Below, piece after piece: positions 8,576 to 54,428 of a stretch of DNA of 64,000 bases. A program made the translations under genes and the position numbers. The DNA comes from a bacterium. GTDB taxonomy: Bacteria; Zhuqueibacterota; Zhuqueibacteria; Residuimicrobiales; Krinioviventaceae. Below the pieces are notes generated by a model. The model ran no database searches. It had not been told where the DNA came from and saw nothing but the letters and a program-made list of their open reading frames with translations. The stretch is taken from NCBI GenBank assembly GCA_963674595.2, contig CAXXFV010000029.1, positions 32,001 through 96,000 of the forward strand, read 5' to 3'. The first letter of the stretch is position 1. Every line of letters starts with the position of its first letter.

Positions 8576-9121
8576 CTAGCTTAAACATTCCTTATTTATG
8601 GTTATAAGGGCATTATCATCCAATATCCAGTTTTGCGTGCTGCTGTATTTCCAATACTCGGGCCTTTCGACAAATCCTTTGCGAACAGGATTATTGTGCA
8701 GATAATTTAATTTTTCAAGTAACCATTTTTCAGATTTCAAAGCAACCGGATGATATTCATCTTTCCATACTTTGTATTGCTGCTTTGGCAACCGGGAAGC
8801 CGCTTTTTCAAATATATTTATAAATTGAACCCTTTTGTCATTTTCCAATAACTCCCTGACTCTTTTTGATGTATATTGGCGAAAATCTCTCATAATATTG
8901 GATAGACTTGTTTCAGGTGTGTTCCATGTTATTAAATGTATATGAGTCGGCATAATTACATATCCAATGAGAAAAAGTCCTTTGTTTGCCTGGCAATATT
9001 TTAAGCTGTCCATGATAATTTGAAAATATGATTGATTTTGAAAAATCGGCAACCAGGCTGTTAAGGTGCATGTTGAATAATAAAAATTGGTTTCCGTGTC
9101 GTATATTTTGTAACGTTTCAT
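8576..9121 (-). CDS. REP-associated tyrosine transposase (RAYT, Y1 HUH family)
   Basis: YVIMPTHIHL (HUH) and YLHNNPVRKG..P..W.YSS motifs; flanked by inverted REP hairpins. Confidence 0.92.
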   Translation of the reverse strand: MKRYKIYDTETNFYYSTCTLTAWLPIFQNQSYFQIIMDSLKYCQANKGLFLIGYVIMPTHIHLITWNTPETSLSNIMRDFRQYTSKRVRELLENDKRVQFINIFEKAASRLPKQQYKVWKDEYHPVALKSEKWLLEKLNYLHNNPVRKGFVERPEYWKYSSTQNWILDDNALITINKECLS

Positions 9122-18544: not shown

Positions 18545-18546
18545 CT

Positions 18547-21842: not shown

Positions 21843-21855
21843 GATTTTATAAGTA

Positions 21856-24905: not shown

Positions 24906-24948
24906 ATCAAGTGACGGGTTATCAGCATATTAGCGCTTAATAAAAATT

Positions 24949-28259: not shown

Positions 28260-29330
28260 ATCTCTCACAAAGGCACAAAGGTCACAGAGAAATAAAAAAC
28301 ATCAATCCAGTCCTTTGTGTCCTTTGTATATTCTTTGTGTTCATTGTGGTAAAAAGATAACCATTTAAAAAGCCTCAGCACAGAGCCGAAGGGTGACTGG
28401 ATTCCTACTTGCGCAGGAATGACAAGTTTCGATCACATTGTGTCCTTTGTGTGTTCTTTGTATTCATTGTGGTAAAAAGATAACCATTAAAAAAAACCAC
28501 AGCACAGAGCCGAAGGGTGACTGGATTCCTGCTTGCGCAGGAATGACGGGTTTCGAGCACATTGTGTCCATTGTGTATTCTTTGTGTTCGTTGTGGTAAA
28601 AAGATAACCATTTAAAAGAGATTCAATGCGGAGTCGAAGCGGGAGCAATGTCGAGCGGATGTCACCCTGAGCGGAGTCGAAGGGTGCCCTCATCCTAAGC
28701 AAAGCCGAAGGGTGGCTGGATTCCTGCTTGCGCAGGAATGACGGGTTTCGAGCACATTGTGTCCATTGTGTATTCTTTGTGTTCGTTGTGGTAAAAAGAT
28801 AACCATTTAAAAGAGATTCAATGCGGAGTCGAAGCGGGAGCAATGTCGAGCGGATGTCACCCTGAGCGGAGTCTAAGGGTGTCCTCATCCTGAGCGGAGT
28901 CGAAGGGTGACTGGATTCCTGCTTGCGCAGGAATGACAAGTTTCGATCACATTGTGTCCTTTGTGTGTTCTTTGTATTCATTGTGGTAAAAAGATAACCA
29001 TTTAAAAAGCCTCAGCACAGAGCCGAAGGGTGACTGGATTCCTGCTTGCGCAGGAATGACGGGTTTCGAGCACATTGTGTCCTTTGTGTGTTCTTTGTGT
29101 TCATTGTGGTAAAAAGATAACCATTTAAAAAAAACCACAGCACAGAGCCGAAGGGTGACTGGATTCCTGCTTGCGCAGGAATGACAAGTTTCGAGCACAT
29201 TGTGTCCATTGTGTATTCTTTGTGTTCGTTGTGGTAAAAAGATAACCATTTAAAAGAGATTCAATGCGGAGTCGAAGCGGGAGCAATGTCGAGCGGATGT
29301 CACCCTGAGCGGAGTCTAAGGGTGTCCCCC
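28260..29330. repeat. tandem REP mosaic array (BIME-like), 7 units of about 122 or 195 bp
   Basis: GTGGTAAAAAGATAACCATT recurs 7 times, interleaved with GGATTCCTGCTTGCGCAGGAATGAC and CCTGAGCGGAGTCGAAGGG. Confidence 0.9.
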
Positions 29331-32637: not shown

Positions 32638-33085
32638 AAGGGCAAAGCCCTTTCGTTAATCCGTCCAAGGGTATGAACCATTTGACGATAAAGTTTCCAT
32701 CGGGGATATAATCCCGAATCCATTGGTTCCGCAAGGGATTTCAAATCCCCTGCGAGCGGTGACTGGATTCCTGCTTGCGCAGGAATGACAGGCTTCGATC
32801 ACATTGTGTCCTTTGTGTGTTCTTTGTGTTCATTGTGGTAAAAAGATAACCATTAAAAAAAACCACAGCACAGAGCCGAAGGGTGACCGGATTCCTGCTC
32901 TCGCAGGAATGACAGGTTTTGATCACATTGTGTCCTTTGTGTGTTCTTTGTGTTCATTGTGGTAAAAAGATAACCATTTAAAAAGCCTCAGCACAGAGCC
33001 GAAGGGTGACTGGATTCCTGCTTGCGCAGGAATGACAGGTTTAGAATCCTCAGCGGTCCTCAGCGTTCTCTGCGCCTCTGCGTTT
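32638..33085. repeat. REP mosaic (same units as the 28.3-29.3 kb array plus a TTGATCG-family REP)
   Basis: Three GGATTCCTGCT..CGCAGGAATGAC units and two GTGGTAAAAAGATAACC units. Confidence 0.85.
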
Positions 33086-33295: not shown

Positions 33296-34759
33296 GTGAC
33301 AGATTCAAACAACAATGAAAATAAAGAACAACAGGAAAAACCGCCCGAGATAACGATCGAACAACTCCCCCCGGAACTGCGTGAAGCAGCAGGGCGCATA
33401 AAATGGTCAACCCTCACTCCTGTTCAGGCCCAGTCGATTCCACCCCTGCTTGAGAAAAAGAACATGATGATTCAGGCACGCACGGGCAGCGGCAAAACAG
33501 GGGCTTTTCTTCTCCCTATGCTCAAGGGGCTCGACGCGGAACAGAAGGTCTGCCAGGCCCTCATCCTGGTGCCGACCCGGGAGCTTGCGTCGCAGGTATG
33601 GCAGGAGGCCCAAATTCTATTCGGCGAAAACAGCTTGACGTGCACCGCTGTTTATGGCGGCGTGGGTTACGGCCAACAGATAGAGGCGTTGAAAAAAGGC
33701 GCCCAGATTGTTGTAGGAACTCCCGGCCGGGTGTTGGACCACTTGCTCAAACGTACCATGGATTTAAAACATTTAAAAGTGCTGATTTTTGATGAAGCGG
33801 ACCACATGTTGTCCATGGGGTTTTATCCTGATATGAAAAAACTCCAGACTCATTTGCCGAAACGCAAAATTCACACCTGCATGTTTTCAGCAACCTTTCC
33901 GTCTTTTGTAATGAGCGTTGCAAATCAGTTTATCCGCAACCCGGAATTCCTCAGTCTAAGCAGCGAACAGGTCCATGTTGCAGAGACGCAGCATGTTTAT
34001 TATATGGTTCCGGCAATGGACAAGGATCGCGGTCTGGTTCGTATTATCGAGGTGGAAAATCCGGCATCTGCTATTATTTTTTGCAACACCAAAGCCAACG
34101 TGGAATTTGTAACCATTGTGCTGCAACGTTTTGGTTATGATGCGGACGGCTTGACGTCCGACCTGACGCAACAAGCCCGCGAGCGGGTCTTGCAGCGTCT
34201 GCGAAAGGGCACACTGCGCTTTCTGGTGGCAACCGATGTCGCGGCCCGCGGCCTCGATATTCCGGAACTCTCCCATGTCATTCAATACGAAGCATCCGAT
34301 GACCTGGAGAGTTATATTCACCGGTCGGGCAGAACCGGACGCGCGGGGGCCAGCGGCACGGCAATAACCCTGGTGAGCCGATCTGAAATGCGGCTCATAA
34401 TTCGTATAGCAAACAAATATGACATTCCCCTGCAAGAGTGGCGCTTGCCTACAGACGATGACGTTGCAAAAATTGTCGCCCAGCGCCTGACCGCGCTTTT
34501 AGAGGCAAGACTCAGGGAACGCGATAAACTGCAAACGGAACGCAGTCTCAGGTTTTTGCCGCTCGCCAGGTCGCTTGCGGAAAATGAGGACGAGTCGGCG
34601 ATCATTACAATGCTTCTGGACGATTATTATCAGGAACAAATGCATGCCCCGCTGGTGCCGCTACAGGACATTCAACCGGCAGAAACAACATCGAATAAAA
34701 CCGGTCAGGGTCCGCGCAATAAAAAATACAGGCGCTATCGCCGCAAACCGAATCAATAG
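33296..34759 (+). CDS. DEAD-box RNA helicase
   Basis: Q motif TPVQ, ARTGSGKT, PTRELA, DEAD, SAT, ARGLD, HRSGRTGRAG. Confidence 0.95.
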   Translation: MTDSNNNENKEQQEKPPEITIEQLPPELREAAGRIKWSTLTPVQAQSIPPLLEKKNMMIQARTGSGKTGAFLLPMLKGLDAEQKVCQALILVPTRELASQVWQEAQILFGENSLTCTAVYGGVGYGQQIEALKKGAQIVVGTPGRVLDHLLKRTMDLKHLKVLIFDEADHMLSMGFYPDMKKLQTHLPKRKIHTCMFSATFPSFVMSVANQFIRNPEFLSLSSEQVHVAETQHVYYMVPAMDKDRGLVRIIEVENPASAIIFCNTKANVEFVTIVLQRFGYDADGLTSDLTQQARERVLQRLRKGTLRFLVATDVAARGLDIPELSHVIQYEASDDLESYIHRSGRTGRAGASGTAITLVSRSEMRLIIRIANKYDIPLQEWRLPTDDDVAKIVAQRLTALLEARLRERDKLQTERSLRFLPLARSLAENEDESAIITMLLDDYYQEQMHAPLVPLQDIQPAETTSNKTGQGPRNKKYRRYRRKPNQ

Positions 34760-34843
34760 GTTCATGGCGTATGGAAAAGGAATTACCGGCTTGTTATGTT
34801 AAATAAGGAACATGCAAAGCCGTAGGGACCTGAGATGTCAAAC

Positions 34844-35285
34844 TGCCCGGCCTTTCGACTCCGCTCAAGGCCCGGACTCTGTGGACGTTGAGCGAAGCCG
34901 AAGGGTGGCCTCATCCTGAGCGGAGTCGAAGGGTGACTGGATTCCTGCTTTCGCAGGAATGACGGGTTTCGATCACATTGTGTCCTTTGTGTATTCTTTG
35001 TGTCCGTTGTGGTAAAAAGATAACCATTTAAAAGTGATTCAATGCAGAGGTTGCAAAGGCGCGCAGAGGGAACCGGAAATTGCCCATCCTTAAAGCGGAC
35101 GCTGCCCGGCCTTTCGACTCCGTTCAAGGACCGGATTTTGCGGACGCTGAACGGAACCGAAGCGGGTGAACAGGGTAAAGCCCATTTTTATCTAGTATCC
35201 TGGAGAAAATTTTTAAGATGATCAAACCATGTAGGGGTTAAAAATTTTTAACCCCTACACATATCAATTGATCGCCCAAAGATTT
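34844..35285. repeat. intergenic module X (second copy 39754-40167)
   Basis: Near-identical ~430-bp REP mosaic at both sites. Confidence 0.88.
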
Positions 35286-35320
35286 CCGGGGCGAGCAAAA
35301 ATTAAAGGAAAGTAGCACAA

Positions 35321-36127
35321 ATGAATAAACGAATACTTTTTGTATTGATAGTGTGTTGTATGTTTTCATCTTTGTTGAATTCAATAAAAGCGCAAACGAA
35401 CTGCACATATTATTCAAAGAACAATTGTGATCAGGATCAGATTCTTGAATTACTTGATAGCTGTCCTTGTATTTATGATATAGATACAATCAAAGAATTT
35501 ATTATTAGATTATCAATTCCCGAAATAGAATTACCAAACTCTCTATTTGAAAATTCAATCGTTAGTAAAGTAATTATTGAAGAAAGTGGAGAAATAAATG
35601 CAATTTTATTAAGTAAATCAATCAATTCAAATGCAGATAGTCTACTTGTAAATTCAATATTAGAATCAAAATTTACTCAATATAAAGATACATCATATAC
35701 AAATACTAACTATTGTATTGCATTACCATATCATATACGAAACGGAAAAATCTTTTCATCCATTTATAGTCCAATAGATATAGTTCCATCACAAATGAAA
35801 AGATTAAAAGTAAATAGAAAAACATTTACCCAAACACAACTACCTGATGATACTCCACCTAAACCGATTGACGGTTTTGATGCTATTAAAAGAAATATTG
35901 AATATCCAATATCAGAAAGAGCAGCAGGAATTCAGGGAAAAGTTGTTATAAGAGTTGTTGTTGATGATATGGGAAATATAAGTTCATATCAAGTTTTAAA
36001 ATCTCCATCAAAGAAATTAGCAAAAGCTGCATACAAGGCAATTAAATCTGTAAAGTGGGTACCAGCAAAGCAGAATGGAAAGCCCATATCTGTGTGGGTA
36101 ACAATACCAATTTATTTTAAATTATAA
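35321..36127 (+). CDS. TonB C-terminal domain protein
   Basis: YP..RAAGIQGKV.IRVVVD..G, W.PAKQNGKPI.VW..IPI.F. Confidence 0.88.
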   Translation: MNKRILFVLIVCCMFSSLLNSIKAQTNCTYYSKNNCDQDQILELLDSCPCIYDIDTIKEFIIRLSIPEIELPNSLFENSIVSKVIIEESGEINAILLSKSINSNADSLLVNSILESKFTQYKDTSYTNTNYCIALPYHIRNGKIFSSIYSPIDIVPSQMKRLKVNRKTFTQTQLPDDTPPKPIDGFDAIKRNIEYPISERAAGIQGKVVIRVVVDDMGNISSYQVLKSPSKKLAKAAYKAIKSVKWVPAKQNGKPISVWVTIPIYFKL

Positions 36128-36158
36128 TTGTTTAAAATATTGTTCACCTTGGGAATGT

Positions 36159-36528
36159 TTCCTGTGGCGCCAATCAGGCAAGGTATGTACACCGTTAAAT
36201 TTAAGGTTTTATAATTAATATGGACCCGTTATTTAAGAACGGATCAGGGCAATATGCCCTGTTTTATTTTACGGCCCGGAAAAGGAGTTCCGGGGCGAGC
36301 ATGGTTTTGCCGCACCATTGAGTATTTAATATATAAATAAATTCAGAGCCGTGTCACCCTGAGCGAAGTCGAAGGGTGACTGGATTCCTGCTTTCGCAGG
36401 AATGACGGGTTTTAAGCCCTTTGTGTGCTCTGTGACCTCTGTGAGAAAATATCCCTTCCCCATTTGCGTTTAAAGCATTTCTAAAAAAAATCACACCTTC
36501 CCCCATCTTTTTAAAAATCATTTGCGCT
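36159..36528. repeat. intergenic module Y (second copy 40183-40554)
   Basis: Near-identical ~370 bp ending in the repeated promoter. Confidence 0.88.
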
Positions 36529-36720
36529 AATACTGAATAATTTGTATTATTCATTTATCAGCCACAAAAGACTATTTTCAGGACGATTGGATCGCGCATG
36601 GGAGTTCCTGATGTTCTTTTACTGGTTTTCCACTATCTATAAAAACGGGATTTAAAAGCATACACGAGGAAAAGATTGCGTCGGAGTCCATAGTACACTC
36701 TTGTTACTCCATGGTGTTAA
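36522..36720 (+). ncRNA. promoter + leader/ncRNA module, copy I
   Basis: TTGCGC-17bp-TATTAT; TCAGGA(36578)/TCCTGA(36606); ACACGAGGAAAAGATTGCGTCGG. Confidence 0.65.
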
Positions 36721-36916
36721 TTATTGGATCAGGTATGGTTTATTGAAAATAACAGGATGTCGGTTCTGCCAACCCACTCTGAAAAATATATAAAAAAAAA
36801 TTTCAATGGTGTGTTAAAAATCCATCCGAAAATCAGGAATTTAAAATCATAAAACAAGGGATCAAAAATATAAACTTGTAACTATCCGATTTATTATATA
36901 AAACAAGGAGAAAAGC

Positions 36917-39049
36917 TTGAAAAAGACATTTATTGTTCTATTTATTTATTTTTTAATTGCTCCACTATATAGTCAGGATGGCGATTTACAGCTTTTAAAC
37001 CATTGGCCGGATGGGCCTTGTTTCGCTGTTGCTAAATACAACGATATGATTTTAATAGGTAACGGAGCTTCATTAGACATTTTAGAAATTGACGATTCTC
37101 AACAAGTAAAATGTATCGGTAGAATGACAACACCGGGCGTTATTAAGAATATTGAAATTGCGGGGCAGTTTGCTTATGTCGCTGATTATGCTTCAGGGTT
37201 ACGGATCATATCGCTTGAAAATCCGCAAACGCCATTTGAAATCGGATTTTACAAGAGTTCCTGCAGGATAAATGATGTTGCAATTAAGGGAAATTATGCC
37301 TTTTTAGGCAGCGAATCGTTTGGTGTTAGAGTACTTGATATTAGCGACCCAGCTTCCCCAAAACAGGTTTCTACTTTTGAAACAGGGCAAACGTCGATGA
37401 ACACGTTAGAGATCGTTGGGGATTTTTTATATATTGCAGATGGTTTTTCCGGGATGAAAATATTTAATATTTCCAATCCGCTGTCTCTAACCCTGGTAAA
37501 AGAGTTTGCCACGCAACACAAAGCCATGGATATTTTCATTCAAGGGGATTATGCCTTTGTTGCCGATTATTTTAAAGGACTGCGAATTATAAATATAAAC
37601 GATCCGGCAAACCCTGAAGAAATTGGATTTTATGAAAAGAGTGAAATAATGACTTGGGGTGTTTCTGTATTTGGACACTATGCTTATCTGGCAAATTCTT
37701 ATAAAGGTATTTCTGTTTTAGATATTACAGATTTGCAAAATCCGGTAGAAATTGCAACTGCCGATACACCACATTTTGCTTATAACCTGGTTGTTGATGG
37801 ACAATATATATATGTTGCTGACTGGGATTCCGGTTTGAATATTTTTGAGGCTGGTGATTCTATCGGCTCCGCTCCTGTAGCCTCCTTTGCAACAAGCGGA
37901 CAAGTTGAAGATATAGTTGTTGAAAACGATATTGCATTTGTTGCCTATGGATATTCAGGATTACATATTATTGATGTCAGCAATCCATTTAATCTACAAG
38001 AACTATGTCGCGTGAAATTCCCGGTGCCTGTAACTCATGTGCAGGTGCAGGATAAACATGTTTTTGTTTCAAATTCAAATGGACTTTATATATATGACAT
38101 ATCCAATCCCAATAGTCCCAATGAAATTGGATGGATTGAGGCAAATTGTAATAATTTTACTATCAACAACAATCTTGTTTATCTATATAACGAGGGAGCC
38201 GGTCTTGAAATTTATGATATTTCCGATATAAATAGCCCTGTTTTTATTGCAGGCTATCCGATTAATGGATATTGGTGCCATGACATTAAATACCTTAATG
38301 GTCTCGTCCTGTTGTCCATAGGAGCACCTCCAAATTCCGGGCTGCATACGATTGATGTGCGCGATATTCACAATCCCACACTTTTGGATTTTTGGGACAT
38401 ATGTTATTACACAATCAGTATTTGGAATAATTCGGCTTATTTGTTAACGGCAAGCACACCCTCCAACTCTTTATATCGTCTTGATGCAAGCAATCCCGAT
38501 GCCTTAGAGAAATCCTGGGTATTTGAATGCGTGGGATCAGATTTTTTCATCAAAGATGATCTGGCCTACTTTACAAAGCGCGATATATATATATTTGATA
38601 TGAATCAGCCTGATGGACAACCAAATGAAATAGGATACTTGCCTGATTTATGGTACAATTCAAATGAGATTTATGTTGATGAAAGTCATGTTTATGTAAA
38701 TGATCAAAATGCTGGTTTTTTTATTTTTGACCATAGTACGATCAGTTGGGTACAAAAAGAGACCGGTCCCGAAAATTCTTGCACAATGAAAAGCTATCCA
38801 AATCCATTTAATTCCAGTGTAACAATGACTTTTCAAACAAGTAAAAGCAGTCCTGTAAATTGGGCTGTTTATAATTATATGGGACAAGAGGTTTTCAGCA
38901 AAGAATGTGGTGTTATGGCTGGGGGAATCCACCAGTTTAGATGGAATGGCGAAAACCATCATGGAACACCTGCCCCTTCAGGAGTATATTATATAAAAAT
39001 AGCGACCGACCATCAAATGGAAGTACAAAAAGTTACATTGATAAAATAA
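36917..39049 (+). CDS. LVIVD-repeat secreted protein with C-terminal FlgD/T9SS-like domain
   Basis: Many 'G.YAYVAD..GLRII.I.NP..P' repeats; YPNPFNS..PSGVYYI. Confidence 0.9.
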   Translation: MKKTFIVLFIYFLIAPLYSQDGDLQLLNHWPDGPCFAVAKYNDMILIGNGASLDILEIDDSQQVKCIGRMTTPGVIKNIEIAGQFAYVADYASGLRIISLENPQTPFEIGFYKSSCRINDVAIKGNYAFLGSESFGVRVLDISDPASPKQVSTFETGQTSMNTLEIVGDFLYIADGFSGMKIFNISNPLSLTLVKEFATQHKAMDIFIQGDYAFVADYFKGLRIININDPANPEEIGFYEKSEIMTWGVSVFGHYAYLANSYKGISVLDITDLQNPVEIATADTPHFAYNLVVDGQYIYVADWDSGLNIFEAGDSIGSAPVASFATSGQVEDIVVENDIAFVAYGYSGLHIIDVSNPFNLQELCRVKFPVPVTHVQVQDKHVFVSNSNGLYIYDISNPNSPNEIGWIEANCNNFTINNNLVYLYNEGAGLEIYDISDINSPVFIAGYPINGYWCHDIKYLNGLVLLSIGAPPNSGLHTIDVRDIHNPTLLDFWDICYYTISIWNNSAYLLTASTPSNSLYRLDASNPDALEKSWVFECVGSDFFIKDDLAYFTKRDIYIFDMNQPDGQPNEIGYLPDLWYNSNEIYVDESHVYVNDQNAGFFIFDHSTISWVQKETGPENSCTMKSYPNPFNSSVTMTFQTSKSSPVNWAVYNYMGQEVFSKECGVMAGGIHQFRWNGENHHGTPAPSGVYYIKIATDHQMEVQKVTLIK

Positions 39050-39210
39050 TTATAAACAATACGCTCGTCCCGGGATTCTACGTAAGGACGCATGAACACA
39101 AGGGCTGTGTCTTTTTACTTTATTCGAGGCAGGCGTCGAATCCAGTTTACCCAGTGGACTGACTTTACCTGTTAATTACATATAATTAATTATAACTTCC
39201 TGGAGGACTT

Positions 39211-39666
39211 TTGAATTATAAAACAAACCCGTATTACGCCAGAAAAATTTTTGCTACAATAATAGACTATGGATTATTTTTAATGGCCACTATTTTATAT
39301 ACAATGCTTATTGGGAGTCCAAATGACCAAGGCGTTTATTCTGTAAATGGGGTACCCGCTCTTATCATACCGACCCTTTGGTTTTTATATTTTATTATTA
39401 TAGAAGGAGAATACTCGAACACACTCGGACATTATTTTCTTAATTTAAAAGTAGTTCAAACAAATGGACAAAAAATTTCAATAAAACATTCCTTAAAAAG
39501 AAGATTATTGGATATTATAGATTTATTTTTTTATGGAATACCTGCACTAATTACAATTTCTAAAACGCCAAACAACCAAAGGTTAGGCGATCTTTGGGCA
39601 GAAACGCTGGTCGTCCATAAAGATGATGTCGAGCATATAAAAAAATATTTTAACAATGAAAAATAA
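39211..39666 (+). CDS. RDD family membrane protein
   Basis: R.FA.IID, TLG...LKVV, QRLGD.WA.T.VV. Confidence 0.88.
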   Translation: MNYKTNPYYARKIFATIIDYGLFLMATILYTMLIGSPNDQGVYSVNGVPALIIPTLWFLYFIIIEGEYSNTLGHYFLNLKVVQTNGQKISIKHSLKRRLLDIIDLFFYGIPALITISKTPNNQRLGDLWAETLVVHKDDVEHIKKYFNNEK

Positions 39667-39753
39667 TTATCTTGTAATAAATGTGTAATAATGCCAACCA
39701 GATTAATTCACAGGTCGAAACAATGTCATCTTGGGCGGAGCTAATGAGAACGT

Positions 39754-40576
39754 TGCCCGGCCTTTCGACTCCGCTCAAAGCCCGGACTCTGTGGACGTTG
39801 AGCGAAGCCGAAGGGTGGCTGGATTCCTGCTTTCGCAGGAATGACGGGTTTCGATCACATTGTGTCCTTTGTGTATTCTTTGTGTCCGTTGTGGTAAAAA
39901 GATAACCATTTAAAAGTGATTCAATGCAGAGGTTGCAAAGGCGCGCAGAGGGAACCGAAATTTGCCCATCCTTAAAGCGGACGCTGCCCGGCCTTTCGAC
40001 TCCGCTCAAGGACCGGACTTTGCGGACGCTGAACGGAATCGAAGCGGGTGAACAGGGTAAAGCCCATTTTTATCTAGTATCCCGGAAAAAATTTTTAAGA
40101 TGATCAAACCATGCAGGGGTTAAAAATCTTTAACCGCTACACATATCAACTGAACGCCCAAAGATTTTGCTGACGCTGCAACTTCCTGTGGCGCACATCA
40201 GGCAAGGTATGTACACCGTTAAATTTAAGGTTTTATAATTAATATGGACCCGTTATTTAAGAACGGATCAGGGCAATATGCCCTGTTTTATTTTACGGCC
40301 CGGAAAAGGAGTTCCGGGGCGAGCATGGTTTTGCCGCACCATTGAGTATTTAATATATAAATAAATTCAGAGCCGTGTCACCCTAAGCGGAGTCGAAGGG
40401 TGACTGGATTCCTGCTTTCGCAGGAATGACGGGTTTTAAGCCCTTTGTGTGCTCTGTGACCTCTGTGAGAAAATATCCCTTCCCCATTTGCGTTTAAAGC
40501 ATTTCTAAAAAAAAATCATACCTTCTCCCCATCTTTTTAAAAACCATTTGCGCTGGTTCTGTAGAATTTGTATTAT
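39754..40576. repeat. modules X+Y joined directly (empty allele), ending in a promoter for dut
   Basis: Only 15 bp (40168-40182) between X and Y; TTGCGC(40548)-17bp-TATTAT. Confidence 0.85.
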
Positions 40577-40642
40577 GCATACTGTGAAATAAACAGTGCC
40601 TTTTGTGTTACATCTTAAAAACAAGGAAAAGAGAATTTTATC

Positions 40643-41077
40643 ATGCAAGTAAATATCAAAAATAATTCAAAACATCCATTGCCCCACTACTCAACCGAAC
40701 ATTCTGCCGGACTGGACCTGCGTGCAAATATCGACGAGCCCATCGTATTAAATCCCCTGGAGAGAGCGTTGGTCCCAACCGGACTGTTTATTGAGCTTCC
40801 CGAGGGATATGAAGCGCAAATTCGTCCCCGAAGCGGTTTGGCTTATAAACATGGATTATCTATATTAAATGCACCGGGAACAATCGATGCTGATTATCGG
40901 GGCGAGATTAAGGCGCTGTTGGTTAATTTGTCCAATGAACCATTCACCATACACGATGGCGATAGAGTCTGCCAAATGGTCATTGCAGCATACACAAAGG
41001 TTGATTTGATAAAAGTAGAGGAATTATCTGAAACGGTCAGGGGAGCCGGTGGATTCGGACATACCGGAAAAAAATAA
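40643..41077 (+). CDS. dut: dUTP diphosphatase
   Basis: [34 protein letters not shown]. Confidence 0.97.
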
Positions 41078-41481: not shown

Positions 41482-44280
41482 ATGAAAAATAATATAAATC
41501 AAAATCCGGAACAAATCGCCAGAGACAAAATAGACAAGATGCTCATTGATGCCGGGTGGATAGTACAATCCAAATCAAAAGTAAATTTATCAGCAAAAAA
41601 AGGTGTGGCGGTACGAGAATATTTGACAGACATTGGACCTGCTGATTATGTATTATTTGTTGACCGAAAGCCCGTAGGTGTTATTGAAGCAAAGCGGGAA
41701 GAAGAAGGTGTTCGCTTAACAGTCCATGAAGATCAGGCCGAGTCCTATGCTAAAAGCAAACTCAAACATTTAAACAACGATCCACTGCCATTTGTATACG
41801 AAAGCACCGGCACTTTAACACGCTTTACCAATCACAGAGATCCCAAGCCACGCTCACGGCCTGTTTTTAGTTTTCATCAACCTTCAACGTTGGAAGAATG
41901 GATTAAAAGGCCGGATACGCTGAGAAGCAGGCTTCAAAGAATGCCCGGCCTAATTGAAGACGGATTACGCCCGGCACAAAAGGAGGCCATTAAAAAACTT
42001 GAGGTTTCCTTTAAAGACAATCGTCCAAAAGCATTAATTCAAATGGCAACAGGTTCAGGTAAAACATTTACGGCCTGCACGTTTGTCTATCGATTATTAA
42101 AACATGCGGATGCAAAGCGGATTTTGTTTCTGGTTGACACCAAAAATCTTGGCGAACAGGCAGAACAGGAATTTCTTAAATATCTGCCCAATGATGACAA
42201 TCGAAAATTTACAGAACTGTACAATGTTCAGAGACTCTGTTCAAGCTATATCGCTTCCGACAGTCAGGTTTGCATCAGCACAATTCAACGGCTTTATTCC
42301 ATCCTTCAGGGCAAAGAGCTGGATGAAAAGCTTGAGCAGGAAAACCCGAATGAAAAATTCTGGCAGAAAAAGGAACCGATGCCGGTTGCATACAGTCCCA
42401 AAAACCCTGTAGAACAATTTGATTTTATTATTGTTGATGAATGCCACCGTTCCATTTATAATTTATGGAAACAGGTGCTGGAATATTATGATGCCTTTTT
42501 GATCGGGCTTACAGCAACCCCGGATAAACGAACGTTTGGATTCTTTGATGAAAACGTGGTCAGCGAATACACCTATGAAGACTCTGTTACGGATGGTGTG
42601 AATGTCCCTTATGATGTTTTTACCATTGAAACCAAAATCACAAAAAACGGCGCAAAGATTAAAGCCAAAGAATATGTGGACAAGAGAGAAAAACTGTCAC
42701 GCAGAAAACGTTGGGAACGGCTTGATGACGATTATGAATATACAGCGAAAAAATTGGATAACGATGTTGTCAATCCAAGCCAAATTAGAAACATAATCAA
42801 AGCGTTTAAAGATTGTTTGCCCACGATCTTTCCGGACCGGTTTGATGAAAATGGAGAGTTTGAAATCCCTAAATCATTGATATTTGCCAAAACAGACAGC
42901 CATGCGGATGATATCATCCAAATAGCCCGGGAAGAATTTGCCGAAGGCAATGATTTTTGTAAAAAAATAACCTATAAAATTGATGATGACCCCAAATCTA
43001 TCTTGAACCGGTTCCGCAATAGCTGGGCACCGCGAATTGCCGTAACAGTGGATATGATTGCCACCGGCACGGATGTAAAACCATTAGAAGTCCTGCTTTT
43101 TATGCGGGATGTAAAAAGTATCAACTATTTTGAGCAAATGAAAGGACGCGGTACAAGGACCATCAGTTTTGATGATTTGAAACGCGTCACCCGGACAGCC
43201 AAACATCAAAAAACACATTTTGTAATTATTGATGCCGTTGGTGTTGTCGAATCTAAAAAGACAGACAGCCGCCCGCTTGAGCGCAAGCGGTCTGTTCCTT
43301 TAAAAGATTTATTAGACGCTGTGGCAATCGGCGCACAGGATGAAGACCTGTTTTTATCACTTGCAAACCGGTTGATTCGCCTGGATAAACAGCTTACCAA
43401 AGATGAAAAAATAAAATTTATGGAAATGTCTGACGGCAAACAAATAAACCAGGTGGTAAAAGCGCTGTTAAACGCATACAATCCCGACATTATTGAATAT
43501 AAATCAAAAGAATTGATTAATAACAAACCAAAGCTGGACAGAACACCGGCTTTTGAAGATGCCTGCCGACAACAGGCGCAGGAAGAACTGGCAACACTGG
43601 CTGCCTCCGCCTTTAATGGTGAAATAAACGAGTATCTTGAAAATGTGCGCAAAGTTCATGAGCAGATTATTGATATGATAAATCAGGACAAGGTAACCAA
43701 AGCCGAATGGAACAGTTACACCAAAGACACAGCAAAAAAAGTGGTTAAAGACTTTGGTGAATATCTGCAAAAGCACAAAGATGAAATTAAGGCGCTCTCT
43801 ATTTTTTACAGCCAGCCCTATCAACTGCGGCAGCTTACTTTTAAAATGATTAAAGAGGTTTTGGAAAAACTGAAACTCGATAAACCGTTACTGGCGCCAA
43901 ATTATGTGTGGGATGCCTATGCACAGTTGGAAGCAGTAAAAGGAAACAGCCCCAAAAATGAACTGGCGGCATTGGTTTCTCTTATTCGCCGGGTAACAGG
44001 TCTGGATGAAACATTAACATCATACGACAGCACGGTAAACAGAAATTTTCAAACCTGGGTATTTAAAAAGCATTCTGGTGCAGGGGATAAATTCACAGAA
44101 GAACAGATGGAATGGCTGCGAATGTTAAAAGACCATATTGCCACCAGTTTTCATATTGAAGTGGATGATCTGGATTATACGCCATTTGATGCACAGGGCG
44201 GCAGGGGCAAAATGTACCAGTTGTTTGGAGATGATATGAATATTATAATTGATGAACTGAATGAGGCATTGGCGGCGTAG
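41482..44280 (+). CDS. hsdR: type I restriction enzyme R subunit
   Basis: ADYVLF..VIEAK, MATGSGKT, DECHRS, LTATP, QMKGRGTR. Confidence 0.95.
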   Translation: MKNNINQNPEQIARDKIDKMLIDAGWIVQSKSKVNLSAKKGVAVREYLTDIGPADYVLFVDRKPVGVIEAKREEEGVRLTVHEDQAESYAKSKLKHLNNDPLPFVYESTGTLTRFTNHRDPKPRSRPVFSFHQPSTLEEWIKRPDTLRSRLQRMPGLIEDGLRPAQKEAIKKLEVSFKDNRPKALIQMATGSGKTFTACTFVYRLLKHADAKRILFLVDTKNLGEQAEQEFLKYLPNDDNRKFTELYNVQRLCSSYIASDSQVCISTIQRLYSILQGKELDEKLEQENPNEKFWQKKEPMPVAYSPKNPVEQFDFIIVDECHRSIYNLWKQVLEYYDAFLIGLTATPDKRTFGFFDENVVSEYTYEDSVTDGVNVPYDVFTIETKITKNGAKIKAKEYVDKREKLSRRKRWERLDDDYEYTAKKLDNDVVNPSQIRNIIKAFKDCLPTIFPDRFDENGEFEIPKSLIFAKTDSHADDIIQIAREEFAEGNDFCKKITYKIDDDPKSILNRFRNSWAPRIAVTVDMIATGTDVKPLEVLLFMRDVKSINYFEQMKGRGTRTISFDDLKRVTRTAKHQKTHFVIIDAVGVVESKKTDSRPLERKRSVPLKDLLDAVAIGAQDEDLFLSLANRLIRLDKQLTKDEKIKFMEMSDGKQINQVVKALLNAYNPDIIEYKSKELINNKPKLDRTPAFEDACRQQAQEELATLAASAFNGEINEYLENVRKVHEQIIDMINQDKVTKAEWNSYTKDTAKKVVKDFGEYLQKHKDEIKALSIFYSQPYQLRQLTFKMIKEVLEKLKLDKPLLAPNYVWDAYAQLEAVKGNSPKNELAALVSLIRRVTGLDETLTSYDSTVNRNFQTWVFKKHSGAGDKFTEEQMEWLRMLKDHIATSFHIEVDDLDYTPFDAQGGRGKMYQLFGDDMNIIIDELNEALAA

Positions 44281-45546
44281 ATGAGAGAAGATTGGATTGA
44301 AGCAGAATTAGGGGAAATTTGTAATATAAATATGGGGCAGTCTCCTCCATCAACAACATATAATGATAGGGGTGATGGACTTCCATTTTTTCAAGGAAAA
44401 GCTGAATTTACTTTACTTCACCCAAAAGTTAAAAAATGGTGCAATAAACCAAAGAAGATTGCTGAAGTTGAAGATATTCTTTTATCTGTTAGAGCGCCTG
44501 TTGGAGCGACTAATATAGCAAATGTGAAATGCGCAATTGGTCGGGGATTAGCCGCGATATCATATAAGCCCTGTATGCTTTTTGTTCTCTACTTTTTAAA
44601 ATTGATAGAAAAAAAATTAGATGAACAAGGTACAGGAACAACTTTTAGAGCAATATCGGGTGCTATACTTAAATCCCAAAAAATTCCTCTGCCCCCTCTC
44701 CCTGAACAACGCGCCATCGTCGCCAAAATAGAAGAATTATTTAGTGAGTTAGACAACGGCATTGCCAACCTGAAAGCGGCCAAAGACAAACTGGAAATCT
44801 ACCGCCAGGCTGTTTTAAAAAAAGCGTTTGAAGGAGAATTGACAAATACAAAAAATATTGAATGGATTACTCTCGGTGAAGTTTGCGATAATGTAGAATA
44901 TGGGACTTCTTCTAAATCAGATAAGGAAGGACAAGTTCCTGTATTACGAATGGGTAATATTCAAAACGGTAAGTTTGATTGGCAAGATTTGGTTTTTACA
45001 AGTGATAAAGAAGAAATTAAAAAATATAAATTACACAAGGATGATGTTTTATTCAACAGAACAAATAGTCCTGAATGGGTCGGAAAAACAGCAATATATA
45101 AAGGTGAAAGGCCAGCAATCTTTGCTGGCTACTTGATTAGAGTTAATTATAAGAAAGATTTAATTGATGGTGATTACCTAAACTATTATTTGAATTCACA
45201 TACAGCTAAAAAATGGGGTAATAAAGTAAAAAGTTTTGGAGTCAATCAAGCAAATATCAATGGTACTAAATTAAAAAAATATCCATTTCCACAGACATCT
45301 TTACAAGATCAAAAAGAAATTGTCATTGAAATCGAAACCCGTCTCTCTGTCTGCGACAATATCCAAAAAAGCATTGATGAAAATTTACAAAAAGCTAAAG
45401 CCCTGCGCCAAAGCATATTAAAAAAAGCATTTGAAGGCAGGTTGCTGAATGAAGAGGAATTAAAAGCCTGCCGCCTGGAACCGGACTGGGAACCGGCAGA
45501 AGAACTGTTGAAACGAATTAAAGATGAAAAGAAAGCCAAAGCATGA
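44281..45546 (+). CDS. hsdS: type I RM specificity subunit
   Basis: Two TRDs; PLPPLPEQRAIV; LRQSILKKAFEG. Confidence 0.95.
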   Translation: MREDWIEAELGEICNINMGQSPPSTTYNDRGDGLPFFQGKAEFTLLHPKVKKWCNKPKKIAEVEDILLSVRAPVGATNIANVKCAIGRGLAAISYKPCMLFVLYFLKLIEKKLDEQGTGTTFRAISGAILKSQKIPLPPLPEQRAIVAKIEELFSELDNGIANLKAAKDKLEIYRQAVLKKAFEGELTNTKNIEWITLGEVCDNVEYGTSSKSDKEGQVPVLRMGNIQNGKFDWQDLVFTSDKEEIKKYKLHKDDVLFNRTNSPEWVGKTAIYKGERPAIFAGYLIRVNYKKDLIDGDYLNYYLNSHTAKKWGNKVKSFGVNQANINGTKLKKYPFPQTSLQDQKEIVIEIETRLSVCDNIQKSIDENLQKAKALRQSILKKAFEGRLLNEEELKACRLEPDWEPAEELLKRIKDEKKAKA

Positions 45547-47030
45547 GTAACGAATCGAGTATTATATCAAAAGTGTGGAGTTTTGCCCACGTATTGAGAG
45601 ATGATGGTGTGGGGTATGGAGATTATCTGGAACAGATTACCTATTTACTGTTCCTAAAAATGATCGACGAATTTGCCAAACCGCCCTATAACAGAAAAAT
45701 TGCCGTGCCTGAAGGATATGGCTGGGAAAGCCTGAGAAATAAAAAAGGGGCAGAACTAGAACTTCACTATACAACCATGCTCCGAACACTGGCAAAAACC
45801 AAAGGCATTTTGGGACAGATTTTCACAAAGTCACAAAACAAAATTCAAGATCCTGCCAAACTTTATCGCATCATCGATATGGTGGATAAAGAAAAATGGA
45901 GCATGCTGGGAACCGACCTGAAAGGAAAAATTTATGAAGATTTGCTGGAAAAAACCGCCGAAGATACCAAAAGCGGCGCCGGCCAATATTTTACCCCCAG
46001 GCCCCTCATTAAAGCCATGATCGAGTGTGTGCGTCCCGAACCAAACAGAACAATATGTGATCCGGCATGTGGAACAGGCGGGTTCTTTCTGGCCAGTTTT
46101 GATTTTATTGATAAACACCATCCGTTAAATATCGATCAAAAGAAATTCCTGAAAAACGAAACGTTTTACGGCAACGAAATTGTTGCCAACACCCGCCGAT
46201 TGTGCCTGATGAACATGTTCCTGCATAACATCGGTGAACTGGATGGCGGCACCTTTATTTCTTCCACGGATGCTCTTGTTGCGGATGAAGGAAACAGATA
46301 CGACTATGTGCTGACAAATCCCCCATTTGGTAAAAAAAGCAGTATGACCATTACCAATGAAGAAGGCTTGCAGGAAAAACAAGACCTCACATACAATCGT
46401 CAGGATTTTTGGAAAACAACGTCCAACAAGCAGCTTAATTTTTTACAACACATCAAAACATTATTAAAAACCACCGGCGAGGCAGCCGTTGTTCTGCCTG
46501 ATAATGTATTATTTGAAGGCGGTGCCGGTGAAACAATCCGTAAAGAGCTGATGAAAACAACCGATTTGCACACCATATTAAGGCTGCCTACAGGTATATT
46601 CTATGCTCAGGGCGTTAAAGCAAACGTGCTGTTTTTCGATAACAAGGCCGCTTCAAAACATCCCTGGACTAAAGAGGTTTGGGTGTATGACTACCGGACC
46701 AACATCCATCACACCCTCAAGAAAAAACCACTAAATCTGGAAGACCTGAGAGATTTCATTACACTTTATAATCCGTCCAATCGAAACAACAGAACCGAAA
46801 CCTGGTCTGAAGAAAATCCCGAAGGCAGATGGCGTAAATTTACGTATGAAGAAATCATCGCCAGAGATAAAACCAATCTGGACATCTTTTGGCTCAAAGA
46901 TAAAAGTCTGGCAGACCTGGATAACCTCCCTGATCCGGACGTCCTCGCAAGCGAAATTATTGACGATATAGAAGCCGGTTTGGAGAATTTTAAATCGATC
47001 ATGGAGACGCTTAACGGAGAGCGGGTTTAG
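45543..47030 (+). CDS. hsdM: type I RM methyltransferase
   Basis: GQYFTPR, DPACGTGGF, NPPFG. Confidence 0.95.
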   Translation: MSNESSIISKVWSFAHVLRDDGVGYGDYLEQITYLLFLKMIDEFAKPPYNRKIAVPEGYGWESLRNKKGAELELHYTTMLRTLAKTKGILGQIFTKSQNKIQDPAKLYRIIDMVDKEKWSMLGTDLKGKIYEDLLEKTAEDTKSGAGQYFTPRPLIKAMIECVRPEPNRTICDPACGTGGFFLASFDFIDKHHPLNIDQKKFLKNETFYGNEIVANTRRLCLMNMFLHNIGELDGGTFISSTDALVADEGNRYDYVLTNPPFGKKSSMTITNEEGLQEKQDLTYNRQDFWKTTSNKQLNFLQHIKTLLKTTGEAAVVLPDNVLFEGGAGETIRKELMKTTDLHTILRLPTGIFYAQGVKANVLFFDNKAASKHPWTKEVWVYDYRTNIHHTLKKKPLNLEDLRDFITLYNPSNRNNRTETWSEENPEGRWRKFTYEEIIARDKTNLDIFWLKDKSLADLDNLPDPDVLASEIIDDIEAGLENFKSIMETLNGERV

Positions 47031-47184
47031 CCGCAGGTTGCGCTTCTACCGCACCATTATGTAAAAAACAAATTCAAAGCCGTGTCACCCTGATCGGCCT
47101 TTCGACTCCGCTCAAGGACCAAGTCGAAGGATGACCGGAAAACAGGTTTTTAACAAGATCGTAACTCTAACCGGAGCCATTAAC

Positions 47185-48681: not shown

Positions 48682-48738
48682 AAGGGCCAAGCCCTTTCGG
48701 TAATCCGTATAAGGGTAGAGAACATTTGGACGATCAAA

Positions 48739-49236
48739 ATGAATCTAATAAATAGGGAGGATAATTACATTTTGAAAAGACAAAAACATACAATAGGCGC
48801 TATTGTAAAAATAAAAATTGACCATGAGTTTCAGACTTATGCCAGGATTCTCAATAATGCAAGTTATGCATTTTACGATTGTCGAACAAAAAATGATATT
48901 AAAGACTTAAATTTAATAGCATCAAAACCTATTTTATTTATTTTATCAGTTTATAAAAGCGCAATTACAAAAGGAAGGTGGTTAAAAATTGGTACTCTTC
49001 CTTTAGAAGAAAAATTAAAAAGCCTTCCTTTGACATTTATTCAAGATGACTTGAATCCAAATATTTTTCAAATATACGATCCTAATACAGGTGAATTTAG
49101 AAAAGCTTTAAAAGAAGAGTGTTTGGACTTGGAATGTGCATCTGTATGGGAAGCTGAACATGTAGAAGAACGTTTAAGAGATCATTACGATGGGAAACCA
49201 AATGTGTGGGTAGAACAATTAAGAATAAAATTGTAG
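48739..49236 (+). CDS. Imm26-like polymorphic-toxin immunity protein
   Basis: G.IVKI, W..IG.LPL, C..LECASVW...HVEERLRDHY.G. Confidence 0.72.
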   Translation: MNLINREDNYILKRQKHTIGAIVKIKIDHEFQTYARILNNASYAFYDCRTKNDIKDLNLIASKPILFILSVYKSAITKGRWLKIGTLPLEEKLKSLPLTFIQDDLNPNIFQIYDPNTGEFRKALKEECLDLECASVWEAEHVEERLRDHYDGKPNVWVEQLRIKL

Positions 49237-49465
49237 AATGGGCCATTTAAGCCCATCATTTAACCGATACTTAAATTTGTAATTATTTGTATAAATATTT
49301 TCCCTACGGTTATCTTTTTGCCGGGTTCCACAAAAGAATCCGACCTACAACTTGGAAGATCAAGGGATGAAATCCCGAATTCATTGGTTCCGCAGGGGAT
49401 TGCATATCCCCTGCGAGCGGAGAATTGCCCAAATGTAAAAGAATGGAAAGTAAAGGTTTAAGCTT

Positions 49466-49975: not shown

Positions 49976-50562
49976 TAAATTTTTTATCGCCCAAAAATTC
50001 TGCCACATCTGGAACTTCCCTGGGCGCAAATCAGGCGGGGTATTTACCGGGATAAACCCAAGGTTTAATAATATAAGCATTAATATAGGCCCGTTATTTG
50101 AGAACAGATCAGGGCAGATGCCCTGGTTTATTTAAAGGGCAAAGCCCTTTCGTTAACCCGTCCAGGGGTAGAGAACCCCTGGACGATCAAACAATCAGCA
50201 GCAGGGGCCTTTCGACTTCGCTCAAGGACCGCAAATTACCCAACCTTGAAGCGGACGCTGAGCGGAGTCGAAGCGGGAGCAGAGTAACCATGTCATCCTG
50301 AGCGGAGTTAAAGGGTGGGCGTGGGGTAACACCAAATGGTTTTGCAGCTTTAAATTAAACATCAAATTCATTCAATAATAATGTTATGAGTAAGAAAATA
50401 TCTTGTAAAGAAGATAAAAAAGTATTATCTATTGTTATTATATATAGGTCTAACCAAGGTTGATGGATTTGAACAATAGAACATATACAATCGTTAGGCA
50501 GCACCTGATAATGGAGGTTCAGTATATTACATTTTTGATGTGATTTTCTGTATATTAATTGC

Positions 50563-54370: not shown

Positions 54371-54428
54371 TAGAAATAAGTTAATCAATAATAAAATTTT
54401 CATATAACGATAGAAAAGGAATTTTAGC

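Follow-up and report, generated by a model that had tools for sequence, protein, structure and literature searches.

How one gene comes to lie inside one of two nearly identical intergenic blocks, and not inside the other, is the question raised by a 64,000-nt stretch of DNA (hereafter, the window) on contig CAXXFV010000029.1 of a bacterium from the phylum Zhuqueibacterota. A sequence-only reading of the window had described two copies of a pair of modules, X and Y, with 873 bp carrying a TonB-domain gene (gene T) between the modules in one copy only. Pairwise alignment of the two loci, which that reading had proposed as a check, confirmed this: X and Y are 96–99% identical between the loci, and the difference between a filled and an empty copy is real (Table 1). 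X aligns in two tracts (34844–34909 vs 39754–39819, 98.5% over 66 nt; 34917–35285 vs 39799–40167, 95.9% over 369 nt with 15 mismatches) and Y in one (36159–36554 vs 40183–40580, 96.5% over 398 columns, with 99% identity in the initial 300 nt), and blastn and the repeat search agreed on these tracts. Y recurs as described, but its homology reaches 36554 and 40580 rather than 36528 and 40554, and X1 is 28 nt longer than X2. The 873 bp at 35286–36158 are single-copy, with only a self-match in the 6.6-Mb genome. Both modules are far closer between the two loci than to the other family members listed (roughly 70–93% identity), and the view that the loci are paralogous copies of one composite intergenic block of REP-family repeats, one of them with a gene, is supported by sequence comparison. 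The uninterrupted version that had been placed near 49985 was also recovered, with 49988–50133 aligning through the junction at 76.5%.

Table 1. Positions of the block copies, repeat parts and genes considered here (window coordinates unless a contig is named)
Feature	Position	Strand	Remarks
RAYT1	8576..9121	-	181 aa; NCBIfam NF047646, 102.2 bits (cut-off 80)
Module X1	34844..35285	+	Composite of smaller repeat units; 115-nt X-tail (35171-35285) at end
X-tail of X1	35171-35285		GTAG-type 30-nt palindrome at 35230-35259; terminal REP head and left arm
Right-end REP remnant (3' arm and inverted head)	35284..35298	+	Left edge of T
Gene T (TonB_C)	35321..36127	+	268 aa; Pfam TonB_C, E 1.6e-20, C-terminal domain
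MRE in filled copy	36140-36301		Terminator-like hairpin 36245-36261; inverted right REP 36272-36301
Filled copy's own left-REP 5' half (head, left arm, loop)	36140..36158	+	
Module Y1	36159..36554	+	MRE portion, then further repeat units and promoter-side module
LVIVD-repeat beta-propeller protein with type IX secretion sorting tail	36917..39049	+	Between block copies
RDD-family membrane protein gene	39211..39666	+	Between block copies
Module X2	39754..40167	+	Counterpart of X1 without 28 nt of it
Empty copy's left-REP head and left arm (hairpin tip) of MRE	40168..40182	+	
Module Y2	40183..40580	+	MRE of empty copy: 40168-40325
Third copy, diverged, uninterrupted	49983..50133	+	X-tail-like REP head, then MRE; directly behind DUF4304 gene
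RAYT2 element	C29:188765-189466		Same contig; NF047646, 108.8 bits (cut-off 80)

The region of gene T has a GC content of 25–31%, and the N-terminus of the protein appears, by eye from the translation, hydrophobic and signal-peptide-like. Among 5.8 billion proteins no relative exceeded 34% identity; besides T itself, one protein was found (34% over 45% of the query). No transposase or recombinase was found within the 873 bp, and the window yielded neither an Rfam match at gathering thresholds nor a tRNA. Among 40 genomes from the same family or order, none of them of the same genus, only the DEAD-box helicase gene was matched (~68%), and a metagenome scan with the X-tail palindrome returned no allele of this locus: at 25 loci the likeness was limited to the 27-nt GTAG-type palindrome, and the surrounding DNA was unrelated and mostly high in GC. 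We also considered an RDD paralogue beside an MRE (defined below) on contig C13 as a duplicated cassette, which was ruled out by an identity of only 31% over 49 aa.

The first ~160 nt of Y derive from an element of a REP-associated tyrosine transposase (RAYT), and we refer to this part as a miniature RAYT-derived element (MRE). It retains the leader of RAYT2, the last ~45 nt of its ORF, its terminator and both inverted REP ends, and the flanks of RAYT2 equal both MRE ends. All copies tested (8/8) align collinearly in two pieces to these flanks, at C29:188767–188838, upstream of the ATG, and at 189363–189464, which covers the ORF end, terminator and inverted REP; at the level of sequence, this demonstrates a RAYT origin. 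The terminal inverted repeat measures ~50 nt, and a related autonomous copy is present, the MRE itself having no transposase. Since the interior consists of RAYT leader, ORF end and terminator, the MRE derives from a whole RAYT unit by internal deletion, as MITEs do from insertion sequences.

We found 42 MRE loci or fragments in the genome, 37 of them on two contigs (5% of the genome), beside low-GC accessory genes. A same-strand ORF ends within 61 nt upstream at 22 of the 42, as against 744 of 6000 random intergenic positions, and 18 of these 22 ORFs have a GC content of at most 0.33; the flanks of T resemble gene flanks in such gene–MRE arrays. Apart from Y1 and Y2 themselves (98–100%), copies are only 72–93% identical to Y2, so recent transposition is not evident, and near-identical pairs occur only within larger duplicated blocks. 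The family thus has the structure of REPINs and MITEs without the near-identical dispersed copies and empty sites of recent mobility, and it is old. Y2 is 84% and 82% identical to two E-type copies and 81–82% to two C13 copies, and a tree of 18 MRE interiors supported 3 of 15 inner branches and did not single out either Y1 or Y2 as the chimera. When species genomes were scanned for the MRE core pattern, 0 loci matched.

RAYT1 and RAYT2 score above the cut-off of their family model, and inverted copies of a dispersed repeat flank the gene. In RAYT1, these are REPs made of a TTGATCG or TCGATCG head and a hairpin (~8518–8553 and 9171–9200). The two proteins are 50% identical. Y1_Tnp has eight matches in the genome, of which five are ORFs of 156–184 aa with weak scores (21.7–35.7 bits); three of the five, namely RAYT1, RAYT2 and a truncated ORF on C26, are visibly alike. 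RAYT genes are described as usually single-copy per genome (PMC5581495), which does not hold here. The REPs of RAYT2 fold at −13.2 and −11.4 kcal/mol (z −6.5 and −4.7), and the right REP of Y1 at −11.6 kcal/mol (z −4.4). Their heads read TTGATCG, TTGCTCG or TCGATCG, not GTAG; a separate GTAG-type palindrome lies within the X-tail (Table 1). Head-plus-hairpin sites make up 59 of 1118 heads (5.3%, vs 2.7–4.0% for five control heads), about half of these 59 strict sites being expected by chance, and with the 42 MRE loci or fragments the repeats fall short of the hundreds of copies typical of REPs.

The edges of T consist of REP parts. Both junction sequences that had been quoted agree letter by letter, and the junctions lie, as claimed, within REP hairpins of the same family as those at the window's RAYT, with a TTG[A/C]TCG head and a hairpin. 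At the left edge, the 14-mer TTCCGGGGCGAGCA (35284–35297) is a copy of the 3' arm of the right REP of Y; it recurs exactly only at 36288–36301 and 40312–40325, with 0 recurrences expected (100 shuffles). Together with the end of the X-tail, the remnant of which it is part gives a 10-bp hairpin (−9.1 kcal/mol, z −2.7). The right junction is indeed in a REP hairpin, but homology to the repeat family extends 19 nt further left than had been noted, because the filled copy has a different half there; this half is of a type found directly behind genes on C13 and is unlike the half at 40168–40182. Similarly, the 15 bp between X2 and Y2 are present as described, but instead of being a spacer they supply the first REP of Y with its head and left arm. 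With a right-REP arm at its left edge and a left-REP half at 36140–36158, T therefore stands between REP halves, with breakpoints near hairpin apexes. Three of the four breakpoints, namely the two ends of the T segment and the recipient break on the right, adjoin the loop, at the loop/right-arm boundary 5' of TTCC. The fourth, the left recipient break, falls at the left terminus of the MRE. The hairpins at the junctions have decayed (z −0.9 and −0.1 vs shuffles). The half at 40168–40182 is absent from the filled locus and that at 36140–36158 from the empty one. Since the 15-nt half-REP was replaced and not kept, no simple conservative insertion took place, and since each locus has a REP half missing from the other, a single step does not turn either copy into the other.

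It is very unlikely that the pair results from mis-resolution, by which ~290 near-identical nt of Y would have been misjoined and the true arrangement would be helicase–X–T–Y–dUTPase with a separate or circular 4.0-kb Y–LVIVD–RDD–X, or two strains merged into one sequence. The genome is in 37 contigs with 5.06% contamination, none of the independent contigs listed spans the whole stretch, with breaks inside X and Y, and a contig of run X4 connects the RDD side to an X1-type head, all of which would be compatible with such an error. However, both junction types are bridged in the same sample with 0–2 differences, and filled and empty X/Y junctions would coexist in it even then. This independent support comes from Logan contigs of runs X3–X6, of which run X5 and run X6 are each from another study. 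The filled junction is bridged in run X3 (35235–36202, 0 differences), run X4 (35222–36141) and run X6 (35233–35618 and 35611–36301), and the empty junction in run X3 (40053–40226), run X4 (40065–40420) and run X5 (40117–40415); contigs carrying the filled or the empty junction thus come from runs of two other organism labels. Therefore, neither junction is an assembly artefact. The helicase contig of run X3 (1892 nt) has 0 differences over 1600 nt (33300–34899), so nothing in that contig points to a second strain. Contig depths are similar (helicase 2.9, T 4.9, LVIVD–RDD 3.8, empty junction 3.4, dUTPase 3.7), which counts weakly because there is one figure per contig.

Depth also fell to 0 over 35388–35909 (T) in run X5 and to about 0 over 36954–39563 (LVIVD and RDD) in run X6. 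A strain without T and another without LVIVD–RDD, as these gaps might indicate, were discounted, as no contig joins either gap. A T–Y–dUTPase arrangement in run X6 was likewise rejected: its contigs ending at 36301 and starting at 40298 overlap within the repeat and do not bridge it.

We consider, with slightly better than even confidence, that host-function recombination between REP/MRE copies is the most likely cause of the one-gene indel between the paralogous blocks. The core of the block is an X-tail ending in a REP head and abutting the ~160-nt MRE, i.e., a RAYT element minus its ORF. In the filled copy, the low-GC accessory gene T has the 3' half of one REP on its left and the 5' half of a second REP on its right; at this place the empty copy holds only the 15-nt REP half. 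Unequal recombination between MREs flanking T, in an "MRE–gene–MRE" arrangement, might have removed T from one copy; on another route, hairpin breakage or template switching might have brought a "REP half–T–REP half" segment into the other copy. The repeat anatomy, the breakpoint positions, the RAYT origin of the MRE and both junctions in independent runs are observed, whereas the enzymology, and whether T entered or left, are inferred; the repeats mark a point of gene gain or loss. Other REP-bounded breakpoints speak for recombination: in the MRE at C13:65917, no left arm can be recognised on the 5' side of the loop/right-arm boundary, the likeness of the E116/E118 repeats (97% over 434 nt) breaks off precisely at the right REP's foot, and a solo palindromic REP stands behind an X-tail at ~C29:120947–120979. 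Additionally, an association of BIMEs with strain-specific DNA is described for E. coli (PMC1525189). Against recombination, the abrupt drop of identity at the hairpin loop is unusual for a RecA crossover in 160 nt of homology. Because X is more diverged than Y over the tracts given above (15 mismatches in 369 nt vs 99% identity over 300 nt), a single event does not suffice without gene conversion. The whole-genome self-comparison yielded this single gene-sized filled/empty pair, so generality is not demonstrated.

Cassette exchange linked to REPs and RAYT, as the sequence-only reading had proposed, drew support from breakpoints in REP hairpins and from a Y start that is an internally deleted RAYT2 copy, but not from recurrence: the self-comparison gave no second gene-sized filled/empty pair, which leaves it with a single case. 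A RAYT, as an HUH Y1 enzyme, would nick single-stranded REP hairpins beside the loop, 5' of TTCC, and rejoin them, so that an apex-to-apex segment moves as a cassette. The shared boundary of both T-segment ends and the right recipient break fits this, as do the further MRE in which no left arm is recognisable on the 5' side of the same loop boundary, the two intact RAYTs on the same contig, and the MRE family, which shows that copying of REP-bounded DNA once took place about 40 times. In vitro, TnpA_REP can cleave and transfer strands, and its cuts fall at CT or CA on either side, 5' and 3', of the stem-loop (PMC8266576). However, the mapped sites of TnpA_REP and IS200/IS605 described in that paper are not beside the loop, conservative insertion would have retained the 15-nt half, the divergence of the MRE copies speaks against recent mobility, and shuffled sequences fold as well as the junction hairpins do. 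We therefore regard RAYT-catalysed exchange as doubtful. The broader idea that RAYTs cut and rejoin these hairpins, with MREs as attC-like exchange points and the co-oriented low-GC orphan arrays as an integrase-free cassette system run by an HUH transposase, is a long shot. We also give little credence to a coincidental mosaic, in which T would always have stood between separate X- and Y-type modules, nothing entered or left, and the identity arose by two gene conversions or module copyings. The genome has 29 Y-head and 11 X-tail matches, which also occur apart, the situation named beforehand as one that would make the adjacency coincidental; yet X-tail and Y-head abut as a recurring composite in five loci, forming one long hairpin in E-type copies. 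Unequal divergence (4.1% in X vs about 1% in Y) and the run X4 contig, which hints at exchange between the copies, would suit a mosaic, but both identity tracts stop exactly at a REP, and conversion would not be easy between family members that are this diverged and share few long identical stretches.

REP/RAYT systems are usually viewed as vertically inherited residents of core intergenic regions, and their biological role is still debated. Unlike this picture, the RAYT-derived repeats here are concentrated in the accessory, defence-rich, low-GC part of the genome, sit directly behind individual orphan genes, and coincide exactly with the breakpoints between which one gene is present or absent. 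The RAYT ORF ends retained in MREs give a direct sequence link from a whole RAYT unit to non-autonomous repeats. Should a RAYT have catalysed the exchange, gene cassettes would have a new way of moving; should host recombination be responsible, the case would be a clear example outside Proteobacteria of REP-type repeats as breakpoints of gene gain and loss.

Among known systems, the REP/BIME and RAYT (TnpA_REP, "REPtron") system of Proteobacteria is similar in that a Y1 HUH homologue passing the NCBIfam model stands between inverted palindromic repeats; these have a conserved 5' head and occur as dispersed extragenic copies. It differs in having a GTAG head, whereas the genome studied here has TTG[A/C]TCG, only dozens of copies and several RAYT paralogues. 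Pseudomonas islands are described as REP deserts (PMC3390384), in contrast to MREs beside low-GC accessory genes. Like REPINs, which are REP doublets mobilised in trans, MREs are non-autonomous, with two inverted REPs related to RAYT flanks (PMC3337134, PMC3116915), but they are longer, and their interior is RAYT leader, ORF end and terminator. Integron cassettes with attC sites resemble the small, mostly orphan, co-oriented genes that have a hairpin-forming repeat within tens of nt, and the filled and empty state at a hairpin. Unlike in integrons, the repeat is RAYT-derived and the half-site was replaced; none of the genome's eight tyrosine recombinase matches (PF00589, Phage_integrase) lies on the repeat-rich contigs C13, C26 and C29, and no IntI-type recombinase stands beside the arrays on these contigs up to their ends. 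REPs and BIMEs that border strain-specific DNA and serve as IS targets in E. coli and Pseudomonas (PMC1525189) share REP-bounded variable DNA with fixed break points, whereas the insert described here has no transposase or target duplication, and its ends are themselves REP halves.

Modules X and Y occur twice in the window, once around gene T, which encodes a TonB_C-domain protein (filled copy, X1 and Y1), and once without it (empty copy, X2 and Y2). Blastn of both loci and a repeat search bore out this recurrence, which a reading of the sequence alone had described. X1 and X2 align in two pieces (34844-34909 with 39754-39819, 98.5% identity, 66 nt; 34917-35285 with 39799-40167, 95.9% identity, 369 nt, 15 mismatches), X1 being longer by 28 nt, and Y1 (36159-36554) matches Y2 (40183-40580) at 96.5% identity over 398 columns and at 99% in the first 300 nt. 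The 873 bp separating X1 from Y1 had no other match in the 6.6-Mb genome, and their GC content is 25-31% versus 38-40% for the contigs. Overall, the earlier observation was confirmed, and its interpretation is partly supported.

Both modules are mosaics of smaller sub-units. We searched the genome with the last 115 nt of X (X-tail) and the first 114 nt of Y (Y-head), which gave 11 and 29 matches, respectively, nearly all on contigs C29 (carrying the window at 32001-96000) and C13. X-tail directly abuts Y-head at five loci (see table), which makes the "empty" form a standing composite within this repeat family. The uninterrupted version noticed near 49985-50035 proved to be a partial case of this adjacency (49983-50133).

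Searching the genome for Y1 transposases gave eight matches. RAYT2 (108.8 bits) and RAYT1 (102.2 bits), which share 50% identity, both exceed the cut-off of 80 in the NCBIfam model for REP-associated tyrosine transposases (RAYTs), and on each side of RAYT1 lies a TTGATCG or TCGATCG head with a hairpin after it. C26:88026-88496 holds a third, shorter RAYT (156 aa) of this type, whose flanking hairpins are different. Y begins with a miniature RAYT-derived element (MRE) with terminal inverted repeats of ~50 nt each. In all eight copies tested, the MRE aligned to the RAYT2 locus in two collinear pieces, the 5' part to C29:188767-188838, immediately 5' of the RAYT2 ATG, and the 3' part to C29:189363-189464, a stretch that takes in the final ~45 nt of the ORF plus a terminator-like hairpin and an inverted REP (repetitive extragenic palindrome). 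Given this alignment to both flanks, the MRE is a RAYT unit without ~525 bp of its ORF.

Coordinates of the main features (window coordinates unless a contig is named)
Feature	Position	Details
X-tail/Y-head adjacency	empty copy; C29:116202-116454; C29:118308-118560; C26:4834-5042; C13:39420-39612	
RAYT1	8576-9121	minus strand
RAYT2	C29:188857-189408	183 aa; flanks correspond to both ends of Y-head
MRE	36140-36301 (filled); 40168-40325 (empty)	~160 nt
DEAD-box helicase	33296-34759	
ORF of T	35321-36127	268 aa; TonB_C, E 1.6e-20; also TIGR01352
LVIVD-repeat protein	36917-39049	type IX secretion tail
RDD-family protein	39211-39666	
dUTPase	40643-41077	
Type I restriction-modification system	41482-47030	

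Where an MRE copy comes after a gene, it starts with a REP whose parts are, in order, head, left arm, 3-nt loop, and right arm. The 15 bp at 40168-40182 do lie between X2 and Y2, but rather than a separating spacer, as had been supposed, they are the head and left arm of the left REP of the MRE. In copies that follow X-tail, the end of X-tail pairs with the right arm, forming one long hairpin with this 15-mer at its tip (15 pairs and −7.7 kcal/mol in the copy at C29:116k). The filled copy carries a different 5' half (36140-36158), which on C13 is the type present downstream of genes, and its MRE is 99% identical to Y2 from the loop onward. On the left, T is bordered by TTCCGGGGCGAGCA (35284-35297), the same sequence as in the MRE's right REP (right arm plus inverted head); in the window, this 14-mer occurs only there, in Y1, and in Y2 (expected, 0). 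T thus lies with a REP 3' half on its left and the 5' half of another REP on its right. Three of the four breakpoints fall at a loop/right-arm boundary, and the remaining one is the left terminus of the MRE. This anatomy agrees with the claim that both junctions lie inside REP hairpins resembling the RAYT flanks. The junction hairpins are weak: −6.6 kcal/mol (z −0.9) for the empty copy, −4.5 (z −0.1) for the filled right, and −9.1 (z −2.7) for the filled-left chimera, compared with −13.2 (z −6.5) and −11.4 (z −4.7) for RAYT2's own REPs.

We found 42 MRE loci or fragments, of which 37 are on C13 and C29 (5% of the genome). A same-strand ORF stops within 61 nt upstream of 22 of the 42, versus 744 of 6000 intergenic positions drawn at random from the same contigs (binomial p ~5e-10, with naive ORF calls and non-independent copies), and 18 of these 22 ORFs have a GC content of at most 0.33. 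On C13, 62-85 kb (62000-85260), many co-oriented genes (GC 0.24-0.36) have an MRE 5-44 nt downstream; the majority lack a Pfam family, and those with an identity encode, among others, a CAP12/Pycsar TIR-domain protein, an RHS-repeat fragment, an RDD protein, an ankyrin protein, and a DDE transposase. The MRE of the filled copy begins 12 nt past the stop codon of T, which looks like one more such gene-MRE unit. T has a single distant relative (34% identity) among 5.8 billion proteins. The head-plus-hairpin family is small (59 of 1118 heads, 5.3%, in a strict census, versus 2.7-4.0% for five control heads), and none of the eight Phage_integrase-family matches in the genome is on C13, C26, or C29.

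Defense genes are abundant across the wider window, which looks like an accessory island. Defense-type genes at 13034-25668 and 41482-56174 include SatD, Schlafen/AlbA_2, Dcm-Vsr-EcoRII, type I restriction-modification, Imm26, DUF4304, a RelA_SpoT-domain protein, and GmrSD. Three Gp49 (HigB-like toxin) genes (15770-16153, 16870-17208, and 18206-18544) lie within a locally duplicated region (14582-19115), whose repeats are 93-96% identical with spacing differing by 3.2 kb.

Eight public runs contain part of the stretch, and contigs of four (X3-X6) were placed on it. In X3, the likely source sample, a 968-nt contig (35235-36202, no differences) bridges both filled junctions and a 174-nt contig (40053-40226) the empty one; X4 contigs agree on both. 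Contigs of X6, from another study and organism label, cover 35233-35618 (no differences) and 35611-36301 (five differences), showing that the filled junctions are not confined to the source sample. In X5, under a third organism label, one contig (40117-40415) bridges the empty junction and another covers 36383-39751 before running into an X head; its helicase contig matches only to 34784, the remaining 1655 nt being off the stretch, and DNA 3' of the helicase therefore differs in X5. None of the contigs listed crosses the whole region; they end within X and Y. Because of this, and because Y1 and Y2 are nearly alike over ~290 nt, the assembly may be a mis-resolved repeat whose true form is T-Y-dUTPase plus a 4.0-kb Y-LVIVD-RDD-X unit. 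A two-strain mixture is weakly argued against by the similar depths of X3 contigs (2.9 to 4.9) and by a 1892-nt X3 helicase contig without differences across its 1600-nt placed part. An X4 contig from the RDD side (39779/34870) enters an X head matching X1, including the X1-specific 28 nt, reflecting either X1/X2 exchange in part of the population or an assembly phasing problem.

A single step cannot turn either copy into the other, since a REP half present in the one is missing from the other, and vice versa. A segment consisting of a REP 3' half, T, and a REP 5' half could have been inserted or swapped in from a gene-MRE context, replacing the long-hairpin tip in one of the two X-MRE blocks produced by a duplication. 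Alternatively, an ancestral X-MRE-T-MRE would have been duplicated first, with one copy then losing T by recombination between two left REPs and the first MRE of the other collapsing to a right-arm remnant. Both histories fit, and the MRE-interior tree and identities, as well as arm complementarity by manual pair counting, are compatible with both. Either could be accounted for by host recombination or hairpin-provoked breakage, the favored explanation, which is also consistent with a repeat family in decay. The sequence-only reading had proposed REP/RAYT-linked exchange; its REP breakpoints stand, and catalysis by RAYT is attractive given where the breaks fall, but the TnpA_REP cleavage sites reported in PMC8266576 lie 5' and 3' of the stem-loop, and there is no sign of recent RAYT activity here.

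Gene exchange at REP hairpins did not emerge as recurrent: among 80 candidate pairs in a genome self-comparison at ≥88% identity, only the X/Y locus was a gene-sized filled/empty pair, the others being tandem arrays or unrelated duplications. There are, however, further breakpoints that fall at REPs. Composite blocks of unit A, X-tail, and MRE at C29:116202-116630 and 118308-118741 (434 nt, 97% identity) are direct repeats around a Reg_prop beta-propeller gene with a type IX secretion tail, and their likeness breaks off precisely at the right REP's foot; the X-Y pair is arranged in a parallel way about the LVIVD gene. In the MRE at C13:65917, no left arm is recognizable on the 5' side of the loop/right-arm boundary, and a solo palindromic REP follows X-tail at ~C29:120947-120979. 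X-tail itself contains a 30-nt palindrome (35230-35259 and 40112-40141) starting with GTAG and ending with CTAC. Its 27-nt core turned up in unrelated settings, mostly high in GC, in 25 metagenome stretches, many of them from a single metagenome, and the palindrome appears to be a classical GTAG-type REP common to distant organisms. Tandem arrays of a ~125-nt unit with two hairpin motifs occupy 28315-29328 and 32758-33042 (C29:60315-61328 and 64758-65042); among genomes of other families in the same order, its 28-29-nt core (e.g., 34936-34964) recurs at 96-100% in G021, G030, and G034 and at 88% over 37 nt in G036. Elsewhere, an 8-kb region is present in two copies (C3:116783-125482 and C10:51944-60320; 91-96% identity), the former with an extra unique 338 bp (121899-122235) between its two aligned blocks.

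A literature search of main texts found no paper on REP halves of a RAYT-derived mini-element enclosing a gene, nor on mini-elements keeping RAYT ORF ends, which does not prove absence from print. According to the portions of the sources covered here, REPs are known as insertion-sequence targets and BIMEs as borders of strain-specific DNA in Escherichia coli (PMC1525189), REPs in Pseudomonas mark old core regions, with islands being REP deserts (PMC3390384), and RAYT groups with small flanking-repeat families have already been described (PMC5581495).
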